From assembly GCA_048937405.1 (NCBI GenBank), contig JBHLNF010000002.1:96001-160000 (forward strand): a stretch of 64,000 bases of DNA, in the 5' to 3' direction. Position numbers and translations under genes: made by a program. The notes under the pieces were generated by a model. That model did not search any database and was not told the DNA's origin. It was given only the letters and a program-made list of their open reading frames with translations. This DNA comes from Promethearchaeota archaeon. GTDB taxonomy: Archaea > Asgardarchaeota > Lokiarchaeia > Sigyniarchaeales > SOKP01. Positions 17,610 through 53,152 of this stretch are shown here, in pieces; position 1 is the first letter of the stretch, and each line of letters opens with the position of its first letter.

Positions 17610-17711
17610 TGGGAGGGGAGGGATTTGAACCCCCGACCCCTTGGTCCCAAACCAAGATTCACGCCATAGAGAAAGACTCTATAGTATCATACCAAGCTAG
17701 ACCACCCTCCC
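17610..17711 (-). tRNA. tRNA-Pro(TGG) with 28-nt BHB intron at non-canonical position 25/26 (intron 17658-17685)
   Basis: Acceptor GGGAGGG/CCCTCCC, anticodon arm CTTGG-TTTGGGA-CCAAG, T-loop TTCAAAT; spliced D-arm junction GGTATGAT|TCTTGG. Confidence 0.92.
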
Positions 17712-37289: not shown

Positions 37290-40200
37290 TTATAAACTTT
37301 TCTTAACATAATATTCTACTTGAATACCAACCAAATAAATATCATTCGCCCCATCATCATTAACCCATCCTACTAAATAAGAAGCATCGGTCAATATATC
37401 TGCAGCAACCCATGTATAAGATGCATCAATATAGGTATCGGCAACTGCAAATGTAATATCCATATTTAGTCCAGCTTCAATGTTATTTGCAGGGGTAGTG
37501 CCATCACATTTATATTCGACTAATGAAAATTGTCCATCAATGGTAAGGTCATCTCCTTCACTAAAAATAAGCGTTATGGTAATGTTCTTTGAACTATCTA
37601 CAGTATTAGAAATATAAAAGTTTCCCCATGCTGATTGAGTTGGCTCTAAATACCATCCTTTTGTAGATATAGTCCCCGTATTGGAATATAAAGGAACATT
37701 AACAACCACTAAATCTGTTAAAGGGTCTACAATATAATTAGACCCATCCGAATTATCTGAAATATCTGTATTATTACCATTAAATACATTAGTAACACAC
37801 ATGTTATATTGGGCATCCGCATTTAATTCAAGTCCAATGTCATTCGATAATAACTGATTTCCAATAATAGTATTATAGTCACCGTCATCAATCCTTATGC
37901 CCTCAGATGTATTTGAATAACATTTGTTTGAAGTTACAAAATTAAAATCTGAATCTGCAGCAATTAAAATTCCAATCCCATTATCATCCAATCTATTATC
38001 TGAAACGGTATTATAACATGCATCATAAAGATATATCCCCGTTGTAGCGTTATCATGACAATCATTATCAAAAATAGAATGGTTATCATGTGCAGAAATT
38101 ATGCCGCTATGCCCATTATGATGTAGATGATTCTCATAAACCTTACATTTACCGCCTTGAGGATAAACCCCAATATATAGATAGGATATTTCACAGTTTC
38201 TTACAATACAATCAGAAAGTCCTATAATACCATAGCCTTTTTTATCAGCATCTCCAGTTATTGTGAGATTCTCGCAAATGACTAAATTATCATTCGCTTC
38301 ATTAATATCTATTATTATTTTTGCTTGAGTTGAAACATCTGAAGCATCAATAGAAAAATTCATTAATATACAAGATGCAGCATTATCAATATCAAATGCA
38401 CTTCTATCACCCGCACAGTCTATTGTCGCACCAATACCATCGATAATTATATTAACATTAGCATTATCTATTGTTAAAGTTGCAGTTAAAGTATGAGTTC
38501 CAGGTAAGAGTTTTATTACACCTCTTCCTATACTTTCTACTTCATCAATAGCAACTTGAATATCATCACCAGGATTCACAGCAATTACATTATCTCCCAT
38601 TGAATTCTTTAGGGTATCCCACATAGAAGTTGTATTATTCCAAACAATCCAATCCCCTAATTCATACCATCGTGCGGGTGTATTATCTGCTCCGCCTGGT
38701 GCTGCTTTATATCCGTCATCATCACATATATAAAAATCCCCATTCTCAGGTGCTGCGGGATACGCATCACCCGGTGTATATGTTCCCTTATAAACTACGG
38801 CTTCTGCTAATGTTACAACAACATCTCGAACTGCATTTTTACTTGGTGCAATTGTAGTGACACCATTCCAGTTATCAGCATCATAGACAGCATCACTAAC
38901 TTTCGCATCTGCATAAGCCTTAATTGATTGTTGAGTTGCTAATTTGGTTGCACTATTAGAGCCCATATTATCTTCATCTAAACAATCAGATATATTTGGA
39001 GTTGATGGAAAATCAATATTATGTTCATTAAGGTCTAAATCGCCCCCTAACTGTGGCGTCACATCTTCCACTAAATTCTCAAATACTTCATGGTGAGCAT
39101 TATCATCTGCAGTATGAGTTGCAATTAGCGCATCAATCGCAGCATCAATCGCTTCACCATCTACAATCTCGGCATCTATGATGTCTCTTACACCTGTTCC
39201 AAACCCAACAATATCACCATAGGTTATAATGGCGCCTGCTGCCCAAGGTGTAGAGACCAACCTATCAGAAAGATTTTTCCTGGCAACACTATTCACTCTT
39301 CTAATTGCCATACCAAGCTTCTCATCCCATTCTGTTTCTCCTAATCCAGCATGAATAATTGTCTGAATACCATCAATACCACGTGGTTTTCTTTCAATCA
39401 TCCGAATTGGATATGTTGCTTTCGCTATGGTTGGTCGTGCAAAAGTAATATCGACAGTTGTACCTAATTGGATTGCGGTCCGCGTACCATTCAGCGACAA
39501 GCGCATTGAGGGTCTTTTATCTTTATAATAGTCTAACTGAGTGTTGGCAACCTCTTGAGCATCAGATTTAGTCATAATAGTATTATCAATTATAATTTTG
39601 GTAATGTTTCCCGAAACTGTGAAGTCTTCAGCTGGTGAAAAAATATTATAGGCTGCATTTCCCCATACTTCTACTCTTTTAACTTGATTGCATGCGTCCT
39701 CTAAATCCCAGTCCCAATCAGCATCACTTACCGTAAGGTCTACACCAGAATCTACAAAATCATCAGGCTTGACAATTTTAATTCGCCTCGTTGCATGGTC
39801 TTCGCACCAAATTGCACCCTCAACCTGACATACAGAGGTAAGTGCGGATATACAATATAAACCCTTAAAATGTCGTGCGATATACTTAGAAAGGGTACTT
39901 ACAATATTGAGAGGCACACCTGCTTGACTTGCAATATCTGAAAGAATGGTATTAGTATTTTGTCCAATTTTAAAAGAATCATTTACAGCTACACCTGTAT
40001 TGGTCCAGGTAACACCTGCACAGGTAAGAGAATTAGCAGCAGAATCGGTTATAGATTCCATAATAGGTGATATATTCAGAGTATTATGATAAACGGTAAC
40101 CTTGATATAATCACATTCCATATCGATTTCAGCATAACCACCCATTGTAATATATTGACCTCTTGTATAGATACGCAATCCTTTTAATTCTGTGAAATTA

Positions 40201-41117
40201 CCTCCTGCAGTATTGAAATACTTAGCCATTTCCGTAGCACTTTCTTCAATAGTAATAAGAGGTGAATCTGTCCAAATCTTAGTAGGTCCTTTTCCCGAAT
40301 ACTCAAGAGTTTTTAAAGTGATCCAATCCGCATCTTTTTTTATTTGTAAATAACCTCTAAGATACCAAAAAGAATAGGGATCACAATCTGGAATATCAAA
40401 TCCATATTGATAATCAATTTCAATTTTTTGAATACTATGCGTGTCTGGAATTACTGTTCCATCAATCGTAAATGATGTAGAAGTCGCATATGTTTGATTA
40501 TTATCACCATCAACAGTAACAACTAATTCATCATCATCATCTTTGGTAATAGTGGAAGCAGCATTACCCGCAGAAGAGTCTTCCCCTGAAATATCCACAG
40601 CAGATGCATCCCATTCCTTAGAGATAGTACTCGTAGTATTATCCACTATGAGTAAGCCTTTATCTTGCTGTCCACTTACCCATTGGTCATCATCCCAATC
40701 AAAATCCTCATCTCCTCCCGCATCATATTCGTTGTTTTCATTCTCATCATAATAAACGTGCAATTCTGCATCTGCATCAACTTGTTGGACTTTTCCTTCA
40801 GCCAGGATATAATTACTATTAAATGATGCCCATTCTAATCTTACGCCAAATCCTACCAAATGAAGCATAAGATACTTAGCTGTAAAATTTTTTTTGGCTA
40901 AATAACCATCAAAAATAACATTTTCATCATCATCCTCAACTCTCATAGGACAGAAATCTCTTGAATACCATGTACTATATAAGGCTCCTTCAAAATCTCT
41001 TAGTTTAACATCACATAATCCATACATATTATTTCGGGTAGTAATAGTGGGATACTCTACAACATCCCCAACTTCTGTCCAAGAATCATCTTCATCAGCA
41101 TCATGATAAAGTTTCAT
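37290..41117 (-). CDS. Baseplate-hub / tail-fibre fusion with C-terminal right-handed beta-helix (receptor-binding protein)
   Basis: Hub-like N-terminal half (NQVKRVEVWG, IQLGTTVDI), fibre motifs TPQLGGDLD and LATQQSIKAY, parallel beta-helix repeats (N...GI...N). Confidence 0.75.
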   Translation of the reverse strand: MKLYHDADEDDSWTEVGDVVEYPTITTRNNMYGLCDVKLRDFEGALYSTWYSRDFCPMRVEDDDENVIFDGYLAKKNFTAKYLMLHLVGFGVRLEWASFNSNYILAEGKVQQVDADAELHVYYDENENNEYDAGGDEDFDWDDDQWVSGQQDKGLLIVDNTTSTISKEWDASAVDISGEDSSAGNAASTITKDDDDELVVTVDGDNNQTYATSTSFTIDGTVIPDTHSIQKIEIDYQYGFDIPDCDPYSFWYLRGYLQIKKDADWITLKTLEYSGKGPTKIWTDSPLITIEESATEMAKYFNTAGGNFTELKGLRIYTRGQYITMGGYAEIDMECDYIKVTVYHNTLNISPIMESITDSAANSLTCAGVTWTNTGVAVNDSFKIGQNTNTILSDIASQAGVPLNIVSTLSKYIARHFKGLYCISALTSVCQVEGAIWCEDHATRRIKIVKPDDFVDSGVDLTVSDADWDWDLEDACNQVKRVEVWGNAAYNIFSPAEDFTVSGNITKIIIDNTIMTKSDAQEVANTQLDYYKDKRPSMRLSLNGTRTAIQLGTTVDITFARPTIAKATYPIRMIERKPRGIDGIQTIIHAGLGETEWDEKLGMAIRRVNSVARKNLSDRLVSTPWAAGAIITYGDIVGFGTGVRDIIDAEIVDGEAIDAAIDALIATHTADDNAHHEVFENLVEDVTPQLGGDLDLNEHNIDFPSTPNISDCLDEDNMGSNSATKLATQQSIKAYADAKVSDAVYDADNWNGVTTIAPSKNAVRDVVVTLAEAVVYKGTYTPGDAYPAAPENGDFYICDDDGYKAAPGGADNTPARWYELGDWIVWNNTTSMWDTLKNSMGDNVIAVNPGDDIQVAIDEVESIGRGVIKLLPGTHTLTATLTIDNANVNIIIDGIGATIDCAGDRSAFDIDNAASCILMNFSIDASDVSTQAKIIIDINEANDNLVICENLTITGDADKKGYGIIGLSDCIVRNCEISYLYIGVYPQGGKCKVYENHLHHNGHSGIISAHDNHSIFDNDCHDNATTGIYLYDACYNTVSDNRLDDNGIGILIAADSDFNFVTSNKCYSNTSEGIRIDDGDYNTIIGNQLLSNDIGLELNADAQYNMCVTNVFNGNNTDISDNSDGSNYIVDPLTDLVVVNVPLYSNTGTISTKGWYLEPTQSAWGNFYISNTVDSSKNITITLIFSEGDDLTIDGQFSLVEYKCDGTTPANNIEAGLNMDITFAVADTYIDASYTWVAADILTDASYLVGWVNDDGANDIYLVGIQVEYYVKKSL

Positions 41118-47943: not shown

Positions 47944-48138
47944 TTATTTTACCATTAGCAATTGTTTTAAATTATCTATATATTTTCCATATCCTTCCTT
48001 CCTCAGAAATGCTTCAATAGATCCATAGTTCCTTTCAATTTCTTGTACTACTACTCTTCTTAACGTTCCTTCATAACCAATCTGGCAAATTAAGTAGGTA
48101 TCTAAATCTGCATAACCAATATCTATATCATTAAACAT
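47944..48138 (-). CDS. Provirus hypothetical protein (64 aa)
   Basis: Start revised to ATG 48138 (MFND...) to remove the long overlap with the KTSC gene. Confidence 0.55.
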   Translation of the reverse strand: MFNDIDIGYADLDTYLICQIGYEGTLRRVVVQEIERNYGSIEAFLRKEGYGKYIDNLKQLLMVK

Positions 48139-48499
48139 AGTTCCATCTATATCCTCCTTTCCTAATATTGTAGTAGAAAAACGTACCTTTAGAATGAGCA
48201 TAATAAAACTCTTCAAAAATACTAAACGGTACATCATAGTATTTTGCCATTTTTCCACTAAGAAACTGTACTTTTAATTCTCCTGCTTCTATCGTCTTTC
48301 CTTTTATATATTCAAATCCTGCTATATTAGTAGAGCTTACTGGCATCATAGGATAATCCTTCCATACAAGTCTCCCTACTCTCATAGGACCTATTGCAGG
48401 AGGTTGCTCTTTTCTTGTAGTTGGTGTTAGTAATCTGCTAGGTACAAACCTGCCACTTTCATCTCTCATGTAGGGCTTTGGTCTTCTTCTTCTTACCAT
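48131..48499 (-). CDS. KTSC-domain protein with Arg-rich N-terminus
   Basis: PVSSTNIAGFEY...LKVQFLSG...YYDVP..F....SKGTFFYYNIR; N-terminus MVRRRRPKP. Confidence 0.8.
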   Translation of the reverse strand: MVRRRRPKPYMRDESGRFVPSRLLTPTTRKEQPPAIGPMRVGRLVWKDYPMMPVSSTNIAGFEYIKGKTIEAGELKVQFLSGKMAKYYDVPFSIFEEFYYAHSKGTFFYYNIRKGGYRWNYV

Positions 48500-48502
48500 A
48501 TT

Positions 48503-49837
48503 TTATCCTCCATAATTCCAATTACTATACATTTCCCAAAGATACTTCCTAAAGTAGTAATACACTCCATGCATAAGAGAGTCTACATAATCATCATCTT
48601 TCTTATCTCCGCAGTAATGTAATAACTGTTGTTTTAAAGTAGGATTTTTCACTATAAGCCTATTCTCATCCAGTACATATCTTAATCCTTCTATATACCA
48701 TTCTTTCTGGTTTCCAAAGAACGAGAATTTAGTACTGTAATTACTTTTCTTCATTTTTGAATTTACAACACTTGCTATCGTCTGCGATCCTTCTAAGATA
48801 AACAGTGGATGATATTTCTGCTGAAACTCCCTACATTTAACTAATATCTCTTCATAGGTAGCATTTTGTTTTCCCCACGATTCAAGCTCGTAAATAATAT
48901 TATTCTTAATTGCAAGAACAAACATCGTGCATTCATGTCCCCATCCCCAATCAATAGGACATACAATCTCTCCGTAATTTCCTATCTCATTATAATCAAC
49001 AAATGCTTCTTCGATTTTCTTTGCTTTAAAGTATGCTCCTTCTTCTTCTACCCATTCCATCAGCACTTCCTGTCTCCACATCCTCTCTGTCATTCCTGCT
49101 TTTATCTGCTTCCATGTATCTTCTGAAACCCATATAGCATCCTCTTTTCTTAGAGTAAATTTACTGCATTGTAAATCTTTATCAAACCAAAATGTATGGA
49201 ATCTACTACCTGCTTTTGCAGTTCCTGTAATCCATATATGCATTTCTCTTCCTGTTGCCAACATAGGAAAGATTTTACTCCATACTTCTGGCTCTACTTC
49301 CTGTGCTTCGTCTATAATAACTATATCCGCTTCGTACGTTCCTGTATCTGCTATTGTATTACTATGAGCCATCACAGTAGTGCCATTTTTCAATGTAGTA
49401 TGTGTTTTAGCATCTTGTTTACCCAACAAATCAAGTTTATACTCTAAATCAATTTCTCGTATTGAACTAATTACATAAGAAGCAGTTTCTTTCTTAGAAG
49501 ATAAAATGTGGACTCTGAGTTTCCTTCTTGTTCCTAATAAAATAATTCCTAAAGCGTCAAGGTAGGTTTTACCTGTTTTTCTACATCCAAAAACCATTGT
49601 CATTCCTGGTTGTAGAAAACTTTGTAAAATTTCCTTCTGTTTTGGAACTAACTTTTTAGTTATCTTTTTATAATTAACTGCAAATTTCTTATCTTCAGTA
49701 GTGAGGTAGGGTTCTACATATAGTCTCGCATACAAAGGAAAAATATTAATATAGCTTCTTGCCTTTGCAGGATCTTTACTCGCTTCTGAAATCATTTTTT
49801 CTAAAATTTTCTTATAGTTAAATTCTTCTTCGTTCAA
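48503..49837 (-). CDS. terL: Terminase large subunit
   Basis: Q-motif PKQ, Walker A GCRKTGKT, Walker B VIIDEAQ, TGT coupling motif, nuclease IDWG and DDYVDS. Confidence 0.9.
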   Translation of the reverse strand: MNEEEFNYKKILEKMISEASKDPAKARSYINIFPLYARLYVEPYLTTEDKKFAVNYKKITKKLVPKQKEILQSFLQPGMTMVFGCRKTGKTYLDALGIILLGTRRKLRVHILSSKKETASYVISSIREIDLEYKLDLLGKQDAKTHTTLKNGTTVMAHSNTIADTGTYEADIVIIDEAQEVEPEVWSKIFPMLATGREMHIWITGTAKAGSRFHTFWFDKDLQCSKFTLRKEDAIWVSEDTWKQIKAGMTERMWRQEVLMEWVEEEGAYFKAKKIEEAFVDYNEIGNYGEIVCPIDWGWGHECTMFVLAIKNNIIYELESWGKQNATYEEILVKCREFQQKYHPLFILEGSQTIASVVNSKMKKSNYSTKFSFFGNQKEWYIEGLRYVLDENRLIVKNPTLKQQLLHYCGDKKDDDYVDSLMHGVYYYFRKYLWEMYSNWNYGG

Positions 49838-50030
49838 TGGGTAGGGGTGTCTCTTCGTTTTTTATACAGAGTTCACTTCCTTTATTCTCATATTATAATT
49901 AAGGGAGGGATAAGCTATCCCTACCCTTTATGCATGAAGGAAGTGAAGAATATATGCGGAAGCAACAGAGCAGTTATCCTGACCTTTGAGGTTTGATCTG
50001 ATTGTTACTTCCTTTCTATATCCTATAGGA
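49838..50030 (-). ncRNA. Candidate structured leader RNA / packaging signal upstream of terL
   Basis: Inverted repeats 49958-49967/50003-50012, 49872-49882/49937-49947, 49901-49912/49916-49928, plus competing pair 49839-49846/49919-49926. Confidence 0.5.
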
Positions 50031-50059
50031 GTTTTAACATTTGTAATACGATTTATTAT

Positions 50060-50093
50060 TTTGATAATTATCAAACTAATACATTTAAATTTC
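50060..50093 (-). promoter_or_regulatory. Late promoter (BRE/TATA GAAATTTAAAT) with perfect 16-bp palindrome TTTGATAATTATCAAA (50060-50075)
   Basis: The palindrome lies between the TATA box and the expected start site. Confidence 0.55.
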
Positions 50094-50114
50094 AAAAATT
50101 AGACAATTTTGTAG

Positions 50115-50363
50115 TCATAGCAGAAAAAACAGCGATTTTCAGTTACCTTTTTTTAGTAGAAAAAAAATAAGTATATATATATATATTATATTTTATAAGT
50201 TTTTATTTATATTTTATAATATAATAGTATATTTTATATATTTTATATACCTAGATCGTAAGAAAAAATATATATATAAAAATAGAAATAAATATATAAA
50301 TATATATACATTTTTCTCCATATAAAAAAGGTTGGAAAAATTTCCATGTTTTTTCTGCTATGA
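50115..50363. repeat. Perfect 17-bp inverted repeat enclosing an almost pure-AT core (origin-like)
   Basis: TCATAGCAGAAAAAACA (50115-50131) / TGTTTTTTCTGCTATGA (50347-50363); inner ACCTTTTTT/AAAAAAGGT. Confidence 0.8.
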
Positions 50364-50591
50364 GAATTTATTCGTTCTTCTATCACGCACAACTTTTATA
50401 ATTTTAACAAAAATGTATTATTTTGAAAATTAGAAAACCATCTAATATAATACTTACTCGTCCACATCCTTAGCCAAAATCTAATTTTAATAGTTATCTA
50501 ATCTTTAAACCAATACAATTTTCAAATATTTATAAGTAAGTGGAATTATAGTAGGATGAGAAAAAACTATTTTAAAAAATAATATAAAAAA

Positions 50592-51146
50592 GTGAAAATT
50601 AAAATGACTAAACTATTATTTGAACTCAACGATGTAATTCATAGAAAATTTAAGACCTTCTGCATTAATAAAGGAACAACCATGAAAAAGGAATTAAACA
50701 AATATATCGAGATTCTCCTTAAGGAAAATGACTCTGATCTAAATACAGAAGATCTTACAAAAGCTATTACTGAAAAAGAACGTAAAGAAAAATGGGAATT
50801 AGCTTTAAAACAATATAAAAAGAAAAAAGAATCAAAGAAGGAAAAAAAGAAATATAAACAAAAACAAAGACGTATACAATATGAAGAAGCAGAAAAACTT
50901 TATCATCAGAATAAAATCGTTAAATTACAAGAAAAGAGAGAAGATCTTATTAGAGAATTAGTTAGAAAGAATCCTTTTCTCGATCCCTGGGGGTATGAAT
51001 TTGATAAAGAAATTATACCAGAAATCGAAGAATTTAATAGTAGATATACTCTGAGAGGTCTAATAGCTTTACCTGATCAGACTTTAATAAACATTTGGTA
51101 TAAATTCCAACAAGAAGAAGTAAATAAATTAGAAGGTGATTTTTAA
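50592..51146 (+). CDS. RHH (ParG/CopG-like) DNA-binding protein with coiled coil
   Basis: KLLFELNDVIHRKFKTFCINKGTTMKKELNKYIE. Confidence 0.65.
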   Translation: MKIKMTKLLFELNDVIHRKFKTFCINKGTTMKKELNKYIEILLKENDSDLNTEDLTKAITEKERKEKWELALKQYKKKKESKKEKKKYKQKQRRIQYEEAEKLYHQNKIVKLQEKREDLIRELVRKNPFLDPWGYEFDKEIIPEIEEFNSRYTLRGLIALPDQTLINIWYKFQQEEVNKLEGDF

Positions 51147-51324
51147 AATGTGTACAAAAGAAGAAGCTATGAGAAAACTTGTAGAATTTATGACTCCTGA
51201 AGAATTTACTGAATCTCTTCAGGAGACTGAATCATCTTATAATTATCTTAAAGAAGTATGCTCAGATTTGCAATTACAGTTAAAAATCCTGCGTGAAACT
51301 ATTGCCGAAAAACGAAGCAATTGA
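51136..51324 (+). CDS. Small coiled-coil viral protein
   Basis: Overlapping operon ORF (AGGTGA upstream of an internal ATG). Confidence 0.55.
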   Translation: MIFKMCTKEEAMRKLVEFMTPEEFTESLQETESSYNYLKEVCSDLQLQLKILRETIAEKRSN

Positions 51325-51760
51325 AAAAACTCTTTACAAATATCGAAAATTAGGAAAACAGCATCCAGATATTCCCAAGTGTGAGTTATGTGGTTGTCTT
51401 CTTAAAAAAGATCGTGAATGGGTTTGTCCTAACTGTGGTTTAGTTCACGACAAAATCTTAAATGGAGGAACTGAACGACCTGGTGATTTATCCTTCCAAT
51501 CTGAAGCAGATTTTTCTAAGTTCATGCGTGAAAGTTTAAACGATCGAGCTATTCATAAGAAGCTTCGAAAAAAAGTCTACTTTGAGGAGTATCACAAGGA
51601 TTATTATCAAGGATTTAAAACCGTTAATTTATACGTAGAAGTTCACGAAAAACTCAAAAAATTCTGCATCAGACATAAAATTAAACAATACGTGCTTATT
51701 TCGCAAGTTTTAGATATAATCCTACCAATTTTAGAAGAAAACGTGAATAAAAATGGTTAA
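51293..51760 (+). CDS. TFIIB-type zinc ribbon plus C-terminal RHH-like domain
   Basis: CELCG...EWVCPNCGLV; KTVNLYVEVHEKLKKFC. Confidence 0.65.
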   Translation: MKLLPKNEAIEKTLYKYRKLGKQHPDIPKCELCGCLLKKDREWVCPNCGLVHDKILNGGTERPGDLSFQSEADFSKFMRESLNDRAIHKKLRKKVYFEEYHKDYYQGFKTVNLYVEVHEKLKKFCIRHKIKQYVLISQVLDIILPILEENVNKNG

Positions 51761-51976: not shown

Positions 51977-53152
51977 TTAGTCAGAAGGTTTTATAACTTT
52001 ACCTTCTTTCTTTTGTTTTTCAATATATTTTTCAAACTTATCTTTATCGATCATAGGAAAAAAAGTATTAACCATCTCTTTCATTAAACTAAACTCTTTC
52101 TTCATGTTACTTATATCTCCTCTTAATTCGAAGTTTTCTTGTTTTAATTTCTTGACTTCTTCTGAAGTTCTATCGTACACTTCACAGTCAATGCAAATAT
52201 TTGGTTCTATTTTTAACCACTGCTTATAAAACCACTCAATATCGAGCAGGTTTTGATTATAACTTCTGCTTAAATTTGTAGCTTTATGACCTAGTAAATG
52301 CTCTCTAAATTCTGCATCAATTTCCCTTGATCTTCTTACCTGACTTGAGAAATATTTCCTAAACGTGTGAGTTTTAATATTTCCTTCTATACCCATTTCT
52401 TTACAAATTGCTTTTAATCTTCTAAGATAATTATTCTTATTAATCTTATTTCCCATTTTAGTTTCAAAGATAAATCCTCCTACAGATTCTATTAAATTTG
52501 ATAGTTCAGTAGGAAAAAACACATAATTAATTTTAACTCCTTCTTTCATTGTTTTAAAGTTTCTAATAAATGAATGATTTTTATACTTTTCAATCTTATA
52601 TTTAGGAGTACATTCAAGAATATCACTAATTCTAAATCCAGTTAATGCTTGGAATTTTAAGATTAATCTATATTCTGGTCTGTGTAAATTGACAAGAATC
52701 TTTTGAATAGTATTTCTATCCAAGATAATTTCATTAACATTTGAACCTGCAGAAACAGTTTGTAATCCATCACTTAAAGGAGATCCTCTATCAGAGTAAA
52801 AAGATTTAATTCTTGATTGAATCATATTCTTCACAGAACCTTCATTAACTCCATCTCGTAATAAACTGCTTAAATATGTGAGTAACCTTTTATTTCTTTC
52901 GTCAATTTCTTCCTCTAAGAATTCAGTAGGATTTTCACACTCGTAAAATCTACAGTAATCATTCAGAGGTTTTAAATAACCTGTGGTGTTAAATCTTGAA
53001 GGTATTTTTCCACTTCGTGCATATTTCTCTACTTTATGGACTATCCAGAGTTTTACATCATTATTCCTAAAGATTGGATATTTTTTCTCCCATTTCTCAA
53101 TTTTCTTCTGTCCAAATACTTCAGTTAAATTTAAATTTTTTAATTCTATCAT
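51977..53152 (-). CDS. int: Tyrosine recombinase/integrase
   Basis: TGFRISD (R), KT, HTFRK (HxxR), LLGH, SRSY (Y); C-terminal coiled coil. Confidence 0.93.
   Translation of the reverse strand: MIELKNLNLTEVFGQKKIEKWEKKYPIFRNNDVKLWIVHKVEKYARSGKIPSRFNTTGYLKPLNDYCRFYECENPTEFLEEEIDERNKRLLTYLSSLLRDGVNEGSVKNMIQSRIKSFYSDRGSPLSDGLQTVSAGSNVNEIILDRNTIQKILVNLHRPEYRLILKFQALTGFRISDILECTPKYKIEKYKNHSFIRNFKTMKEGVKINYVFFPTELSNLIESVGGFIFETKMGNKINKNNYLRRLKAICKEMGIEGNIKTHTFRKYFSSQVRRSREIDAEFREHLLGHKATNLSRSYNQNLLDIEWFYKQWLKIEPNICIDCEVYDRTSEEVKKLKQENFELRGDISNMKKEFSLMKEMVNTFFPMIDKDKFEKYIEKQKKEGKVIKPSD

Follow-up and report, generated by a model that had tools for sequence, protein, structure and literature searches.

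A conserved, covarying hairpin element upstream of the large terminase gene in a Verdandivirus-like provirus of an Asgard archaeon

The window analyzed here is a stretch of 64,000 nucleotides from a Promethearchaeota archaeon (GenBank assembly GCA_048937405.1, contig JBHLNF010000002.1, positions 96,001 to 160,000 of the forward strand), and all coordinates refer to it. It is AT-rich throughout, with a GC content of about 29%. An unbroken string of minus-strand genes runs from terL, the gene for the large terminase, to an ORF of 1275 aa at 37290-41117; a portal-like ORF and an HK97-type capsid-like ORF, both recognized from weak matches, lie within this string (Table 1). On the plus strand, divergent from terL, are small RHH-like and zinc-ribbon ORFs. 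RHH-like segments were assigned in two neighboring proteins from a ParG-like match (E = 0.005) together with inspection of the sequences. Between terL and the divergent cluster lies a non-coding gap of 754 nt (49838-50591), and the structured block that is the subject of this work (49838-50030) makes up the terL-proximal portion of this control region.

The encoded TerL shares 48% identity with TerL of the Lokiarchaeia virus VerdaV1 and 51-61% identity with a dozen metagenomic proteins. Based on these identities, the ~17-kb element is identified as a Verdandivirus-like provirus, designated WIN below. Viruses of the Verdandivirus type were given Asgard hosts by Medvedeva et al. (bioRxiv 10.1101/2021.07.29.453957). 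For comparison, terL-upstream DNA was taken for the closest TerL homologues, and the loci of these metagenomic relatives are referred to by L-numbers (L013, L073, etc.). Most of them also have a non-coding gap of ~700 nt 5' of terL, with divergent genes on its far side.

Table 1. Features of the provirus and of the region 5' of terL (window coordinates)
Feature	Position	Strand	Remarks
Virion operon (terL, KTSC, portal, capsid, tail)		-	
Tyrosine integrase	51977-53152		
terL, large terminase	48503-49837	-	444 aa; PHROG phrog_2, E = 1.9e-28
KTSC-domain protein	48131-48499	-	Pfam KTSC, E = 2.9e-12
CCUAUAGG box	50022-50029	-	5' edge of conserved block
P1-core, conserved nested hairpin	50017-49953	-	72.2 bits, covariance model R1
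P1	50012-50003 / 49967-49958	-	one U.G pair on the minus strand
AAGGAAGU	50014-50007; second copy 49882-49875	-	
Long hairpin domain	49872-49947	-	P2 encloses H2; pair probabilities 0.9-1.0
P2	49947-49937 / 49882-49872	-	perfect 11-bp stem
Inner hairpin (H2)	49901-49928	-	5 bp, bulged U, 7 bp, GCU loop; -16.3 kcal/mol
H2 arms	49928-49916 / 49912-49901	-	
GGGUAGGG	49926-49919	-	
TATA-like box UGUAUAAAAAA	49858-49868	-	starts 29 nt before TTG; putative promoter element
C-rich box CCCCUACCC	49839-49847	-	ends 1 nt before terL start; perfect complement of H2 5' arm
CCCUACCC	49846-49839	-	ends 1 nt before TTG at 49837

The plus-strand ORF at 51293-51760 encodes a protein of 155 aa with a CxxC...CxxCG-LV zinc ribbon that recalls the N-terminal ribbon of TFB/TFIIB. 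The weak Pfam match of this protein is to the Cas12f1-like TNB, and its C-terminal segment is RHH-like in appearance; it is a candidate viral transcription factor that could serve the divergent promoters. Farther from terL in the non-coding gap, the iteron-like repeat TTAGAT occurs three times at 50430-50500, and iteron-like repeats of another sequence, TGGGTTAAnTAGATT, are found 300-450 nt 5' of terL in the relatives L013, L015, L017, and L019. The iteron-like repeats and a palindrome, GATTTAAAGCTTTAAAAT, adjoin a block of nearly pure A/T (50160-50310 in the window), beside which a second C-rich box, CCCnAATAGAnCCC, is present in L013, L015, and L019. Repeats, palindrome, and A/T block together look like an origin or a regulatory array. 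Several independent metagenomic contigs (L008/L023/L043, L013, L045, L047, L048, and L049) end within terL or at distances of up to 300-900 nt 5' of it; the ends may be those of the viral genome, or the assembly may have broken at the extreme A/T block. A scan of the whole window against Rfam 15 at gathering thresholds returned only a tRNA of 102 nt (17610-17711, minus strand; 43.8 bits). ARAGORN called no tRNA in the window, and the Rfam-detected tRNA presumably contains an intron.

The TerL of WIN is one of a clade of short proteins, in which residue 47 of the WIN sequence aligns with residue 126 of VerdaV1 TerL. Classical Verdandivirus TerLs (510-556 aa) have an N-terminal extension of ~80 aa, HTH_36-like or zinc-ribbon in type, whereas the 444-aa clade is without it. 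In the long TerLs P0014 and P0025-P0032, the HTH_36-like or zinc-ribbon module was located within residues 1-125, and this fused module may be a built-in, TerS-like DNA-recognition domain. A decayed TerL extension in the non-coding DNA was also considered and rejected, as tblastn with 14 long-TerL N-termini gave nothing below E = 0.1. Among the ORFs flanking terL, no hit to a TerS family was obtained with Pfam or PHROGs at E <= 0.01, and the block itself is without a conserved ORF, in agreement with an earlier, preliminary description of this DNA in which no small terminase gene had been seen.

The KTSC-domain protein has an Arg-rich, predicted-disordered N-terminal arm of ~45 aa, with the consensus MVRRRR..K.Y.RG..GRF.PSR in the short-TerL clade. 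This arm is found across the whole clade but is absent from the classical Verdandivirus homologues, which carry a basic C-terminal tail. An AF2 model of the C-terminal part matched PDB entries 7x8c and 4rgi, KTSC structures of unknown function. From its sequence, the protein is a candidate nucleic-acid-binding partner. Co-occurrence of the arm with the 65-nt hairpin described below was considered and then discarded. L010 had seemed to lack both, its KTSC gene (L010:3540-3636) having been called from an internal ATG to give 85 aa; 5' of that ATG the frame stays open, and initiation at a GTG, which brings the gene into overlap with the end of terL, restores the Arg-rich arm. Because the arm is therefore clade-wide and includes members without the hairpin, no specific co-occurrence signal is present. 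Prediction of a TerL-KTSC complex scored 0.00 in two runs without controls, which speaks neither for nor against binding. Loss of the TerL module and gain of the KTSC arm are, as sequence features, suggestive of packaging or RNA binding.

For structural analysis of the 193-nt block, the strand that is sense for terL was compared with its complement. Every stem and complementarity given in the preliminary description was recovered by exact string search, and the fold consists of three stems, nested or adjacent. With RNAfold, the minus strand of 49838-50030 reached -58.0 kcal/mol; 200 dinucleotide shuffles gave -35.9 +/- 3.8 kcal/mol, and none equaled the native sequence (z = -5.86). The plus strand gave z = -2.73. 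The block is thus structured beyond shuffled sequence on the terL-sense strand, as had been proposed. It is also non-coding, as first described: stops interrupt all six frames in WIN and in the relatives, which rules out a coding explanation, and no conserved ORF covers it. Its sequence is single-copy in the 4.47-Mb assembly. A search of 49700-50650 at E <= 10 gave chance-level hits only, the best at 23 bits against a cutoff of 70 bits, so that neither this search nor the gathering-threshold scan assigns the block to a known Rfam family. In the relatives, the last 200 nt 5' of terL have z values of +1.4 to -2.2 and are not globally above shuffles; the perfect 11-bp P2 and the extreme z-score are specific to the WIN provirus.

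It had been suggested that the block might adopt two mutually exclusive folds. Pair probabilities from the partition function of 50040-49815 contradict this, with values of 0.9-1.0 for P1, P2, and the inner hairpin and ~0 for both alternatives. Forcing GGGUAGGG onto CCCUACCC costs 7.8 kcal/mol, and forcing AAGGAAGU onto the 5' arm of P2 costs 23.4 kcal/mol. As the RNA has no intrinsic bistability, any switching would require a factor. The complementarity of GGGUAGGG and CCCUACCC is nevertheless highly non-random in WIN (-17.7 kcal/mol; 300 shuffled targets gave -6.5 +/- 2.2 kcal/mol, with none reaching the native value), and the C-rich box matches the 5' arm of H2 better than the local, bulged 3' arm does. 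A comparable match of 7 bp, between the P1 5' arm and the C-rich box, is marginal in L073 (p ~0.04). In L013, L015, L017, L019, L021, and L010, start-proximal complementarity was not significant (p 0.07-0.34), and the alternative pairings are not conserved as a set. Exclusive folds of comparable energy and a conserved alternative pairing, both marks of a riboswitch or bistable RNA, were absent. Of the earlier interpretation, a structured, conserved, non-coding element on the sense strand remains, without a demonstrated switch.

The conserved part of the block is a nested hairpin of 65 nt, here called P1-core, which comprises the outer stem P1, a conserved internal loop, a short CAG/CUG stem, and an inner stem with a small variable hairpin. 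Its conserved unpaired stretches are ACAAYCAGAU and ACUGCUCU; stretches of the ACAAYCAGAU and ACUGCUCUAUAG types are near-invariant across six lineages. Covariance-model searches located P1-core in L013, L015, L017, L019, and L073 in addition to WIN. The model, R1, was built from five sequences that did not include L073, which was matched at 30.9 bits (E ~2e-5). TerL identity among these six lineages is only 51-61%.

In the six-sequence alignment, which was itself fitted to the covariance model, 89% of cells pair, compared with 34-47% in slid controls, both sides have changed in 10 of 21 pairs, and none of 500 shuffles reached any of five pairing measures. The P1 sequences are wholly different between WIN, L017, and the group formed by L013, L015, L019, and L073; with only six lineages, and with L013, L015, and L019 alike in P1, the number of independent compensatory events is small. 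G.U cells outnumber A.C cells by 15 to 4. The sense strand folded better than the antisense strand in three of the six lineages (clearly in L013 and L073, slightly in WIN), about equally in two, and worse in one. Based on the double changes, the 89% pairing, and the 15:4 ratio of G.U to A.C, we read P1-core as a genuine sense-strand structure of RNA type. Compensatory substitutions and strand specificity, with G.U tolerated and A.C avoided, are among the general marks of a conserved structured RNA motif. The structure is thus kept in relatives for a part of the block, which represents a new RNA motif.

P1-core was not found elsewhere among 40 related TerL loci or 17 pattern-matched IMG/VR loci. 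The latter came from an IUPAC pattern scan of IMG/VR, and only two of them, both already known, passed the model. Across the host's order, model searches of 149 further genomes were negative, as were searches with filters off in L010, L011, L020, L021, L026, and L074. Because the element is missing from the clade members L010, L011, L020, and L021, it is not essential to the clade. No TerL homologue was present in 53 other genomes of the genus, a KTSC-based scan of IMG/VR gave no new lineages, and DNA searches of the 40 relatives matched AT-rich flanks only. At the 5' side of P1-core, the conserved block is bounded by a YAUAGG motif in WIN, L013, L015, L019, and L073. A TATA-like sequence, AAAATAATAAAT, lies at 50062-50051, about 26-30 nt 5' of this box in WIN, and because of this spacing the YAUAGG box may be a transcript 5' end.

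Between P1-core and terL, P2 combines a pyrimidine box, UUCACUUCC, with a purine box, AAGGAAGUG. Every lineage has boxes of both kinds that are able to pair (AAGGAAG for the purines, UUCACUUC for the pyrimidines), although their order differs, and the AAGGAAGU purine box and its complement account for three occurrences in WIN. The 5' arm of H2 contains a conserved GGUAGGG motif. L017 and L011 have a separate hairpin of other sequence but built alike, with 5 bp, a bulged U, and 5-6 bp (~-16 kcal/mol), and between L013 and L044 a G-to-A change converts a G.U pair of the H2-type hairpin into A-U. The bulged design makes H2 unsuited to be a symmetric DNA operator. The motif GGUAGRGG, which the host genome carries at 0.02 per kb per strand, is found on the sense strand 5' of terL in most lineages; in L013, L015, L019, and L073 it is the 5' arm of an outer stem around the 65-nt core. 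As it belongs to a separate hairpin in WIN, L017, and L011 and to an outer stem in the other four, the arrangement of the two modules differs between lineages.

At L019:1512-1739, and also in L025 and L045, a basic ORF of 75 aa with no family match lies between the 65-nt element and the unit of H2 and C-rich box. A separate TATA-like box begins 29 nt 5' of the ATG of this ORF. The insertion in L019 fits an element at the 5' end of the operon and a separate, terL-proximal element.

For the region directly before terL, the distance from the beginning of a TATA-like box to the start codon is 28-32 nt in WIN, L013, L015, L019, L073, and L021, and 45 nt in L017. Such a box may or may not be that of a leaderless promoter, which would have TATA centered ~26 nt 5' of a TSS at the start codon, and it is seen against an AT-rich background. 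In all seven lineages, an A/T box lies 10-22 nt 5' of the C-rich box. Seven of 9 distinct lineages have a C-rich box no more than 25 nt 5' of terL, and its sequence differs between them. In the host genome such boxes have a density of 0.035 per kb per strand, and among 237 host hits the WIN box alone is preceded by a TATA-like sequence before a gene start. The start codon is TTG at 49837. There is no in-frame ATG upstream and the next one is codon 15; a protein begun there would be without the conserved N-terminal FxFK motif, so that the TTG start is supported. No SD sequence precedes terL in any lineage, although the host uses SD, and a UUG start without SD argues for some form of assisted initiation. 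In the host genome, TATA is weakly enriched 30 nt 5' of start codons, which indicates that some leaderless genes exist. SSU rRNA is absent from the WIN assembly, which left no anti-SD for comparison, and the sigma-70 and terminator scans use bacterial models that are not applicable to an archaeal host.

As an explanation of these features we tentatively favor, with a little less than even confidence, a leader at the head of the virion operon, acting in cis and read by a viral protein. A leader transcript of ~190 nt would start near the YAUAGG box, at about 50027, and would contain two RNA modules, the 65-nt nested hairpin and the bulged-U GGUAG hairpin; the TATA-like box, and then the C-rich box against the start codon, follow 3' of both. 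The modules would form a platform bound by a virus-encoded protein, and the bound protein would set expression of the late operon at the level of transcript elongation, of stability, or of translation of the SD-less, UUG-initiated terL. The Arg-rich KTSC protein, encoded right after terL, would be the most obvious candidate for the reader. An RNA is favored because P1-core covaries and keeps its loops, its pairs are biased toward G.U, and H2 has a bulged U, and a leader read by a viral factor would be consistent with the ORF insertion in L019 and with an SD-less UUG start in a host that uses SD. If the TATA-like box before terL is the late promoter, however, the terL mRNA would be leaderless and the hairpins would lie upstream of the transcript, which would argue against such a leader.

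That possibility belongs to an account of the region as DNA, in which the inverted repeats would be operators of the divergently encoded RHH-type regulators, and the TATA-like and C-rich boxes would form a late promoter for leaderless terL. The C-rich box, lying between TATA and TSS, would then be a G/C-rich box in the region to be melted, or a repressor site. The regular position of the TATA-like box in six lineages, with the C-rich box always 10-22 nt downstream, would be explained in this way, as would conservation of the GGUAGRGG and C-rich boxes in sequence and not in pairing alone. In WIN and L073, moreover, these two boxes are mutual reverse complements, like a site repeated in two orientations, and the threefold occurrence of AAGGAAGU and its complement in WIN, the RHH-like segments of the two neighboring proteins, and the leaderless genes of the host point the same way. 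Dimer operators, however, have no need of a 65-nt element with an asymmetric conserved interior of ~40 nt, bulges, and strand-biased G.U pairs. The P1 arms are free in sequence while their pairing is kept, the opposite of a sequence-specific DNA site. UUG start codons are a poor fit for archaeal leaderless initiation, and TATA-like strings are common by chance at 22-35% GC. On balance we consider a DNA-level control region unlikely, at roughly one chance in a handful, but it is the main rival of the leader.

The DNA just 5' of the terminase gene is the usual place for cos and pac sites in tailed phages. The C-rich box, the hairpins, or both could accordingly be a pac/cos region or a pRNA-like RNA that replaces the missing TerS and the TerL N-terminal domain, and that is perhaps read by the Arg-rich KTSC protein; we regard this as improbable, and somewhat more so than operators and a leaderless promoter. 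It would account for the lack of a TerS family among the terL-adjacent ORFs, and for a clade in which TerL is without the HTH_36 or zinc-ribbon module and KTSC has the Arg-rich arm, the classical proteins showing the reverse. The sole long non-coding region near the packaging genes holds, at the usual cos/pac position, a rare, G/C-rich conserved box, as cos and pac regions do. The box drifts among lineages, however, beyond what is usual for a nuclease target, and the adjoining hairpins are RNA-like, with G.U bias and compensatory changes. Several clade members that share the TerL and KTSC architecture are also missing the 65-nt element. With phi29 the locus shares the absence of a recognizable TerS and a structured non-coding RNA beside packaging genes, but phi29 has protein-primed linear DNA and an ATPase of another lineage, whereas a canonical TerL nuclease-ATPase is encoded here. 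The phi29 pRNA family (RF00044) was unmatched at E <= 10.

A stand-alone small RNA is a slightly poorer prospect again. The 65-nt core would be that of a trans-acting or immunity-type RNA with its own promoter in a lysis-lysogeny region, acting by pairing via its purine and pyrimidine boxes. The TATA-like box ~26-30 nt 5' of the YAUAGG edge, which recurs in several lineages, may be such a promoter. Complementary repeated boxes (AAGGAAGU / ACUUCCUU) are present in all lineages, and the space between divergent operons of an integrase-bearing temperate element is a typical place for such RNAs. Against it, no lineage has an oligo-T terminator after the element. P4 CI RNA and P1 c4 are similar in having a stable stem-loop in the leader of an operon that it possibly controls, and short boxes, repeated upstream and downstream, that are able to pair with the stem-loop; they are bacterial and dependent on Rho or terminators, unlike the archaeal element.

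More speculative still, and only a slim prospect, is that a TerL without a DNA-binding module, in a virus with no TerS, obtains packaging recognition or operon licensing through an RNA read by the KTSC protein. A bistable, riboswitch-like leader whose exclusive folds expose or occlude the terL start codon is very unlikely: the perfect 8-bp complement of H2 5' arm and C-rich box in WIN and its marginal counterpart in L073 stand against the energies and probabilities given above, the lack of significance in six other lineages, local hairpins that would form first during transcription, the absence of an Rfam riboswitch match, and the absence of an SD to sequester.

Several known RNA classes were compared with the element and set aside. 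A hairpin ribozyme is superficially similar in its ACCAG...CUG stem and A-rich loop, but GUC and AGAA are absent, the loop adjacent to P1 is CAAY opposite CUCUA, and RF00173 gave no hit. For H/ACA sRNAs, ACA follows P1 in some lineages only (L013, L019), and for k-turn-type GA.AG tandems none were seen. C and D boxes of C/D sRNAs occur in no sequence, and a resemblance to BHB was rejected by eye.

Candidate structured RNAs have been cataloged by computation at this position in phages. An IMG/VR survey of the Fremin and Bhatt type (PMC10690425) lists 14 csRNAs 5' of psiM2_ORF9-type terminases. The 65-nt element belongs to the same general kind, candidate RNAs 5' of phage terL: it too is a covariation-supported hairpin of ~65 nt before terL of a tailed dsDNA virus, defined computationally and with a presumed cis-regulatory role, the difference being its Asgard-type archaeal hosts and its confinement to a small clade of Asgard viruses. 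The survey required at least three unique IMG/VR regions, whereas the 65-nt element occurs in only two IMG/VR contigs, and it is therefore probably outside the published set.

With respect to function, the element may be likened to the lambda N/boxB (nut) and HK022 put systems, in which a protein- or polymerase-binding leader licenses downstream expression. Common to these and the present locus, on the leader reading, would be short hairpins in a phage operon leader, a bulged or looped hairpin as the recognition element, and an Arg-rich peptide encoded by the same virus. They differ in that there is no sequence or Rfam similarity, the RNA polymerase is archaeal, and no terminators were identified; in contrast to an N-like protein, the Arg-rich arm is joined to a KTSC domain and is a candidate binder only. 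By analogy, the element resembles nut/boxB or put more than a riboswitch, and membership of those families is not claimed.

To our knowledge, almost nothing is known of gene regulation and packaging in the viruses of Asgard archaea. The papers on Asgard viruses consulted here, including that of Medvedeva et al., make no mention of non-coding or intergenic elements. The present analysis supplies a concrete, testable element, in which two hairpins, one covarying and 65 nt long and the other bulged and carrying GGUAG, are accompanied by a rare C-rich box at the start of terL, in a clade whose TerL is without the DNA-binding N terminus of its Verdandivirus cousins. If terL is leaderless and the repeats are operators, this would be an ordinary promoter-operator region. 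If the element is a packaging signal, it would show how an archaeal virus without TerS selects its DNA, and an RNA-dependent terminase step, if true, would be without precedent in archaeal viruses, with phi29 pRNA as no more than a loose parallel. If a viral protein reads the element as a leader RNA, the leader-RNA control of phages would have an archaeal counterpart.
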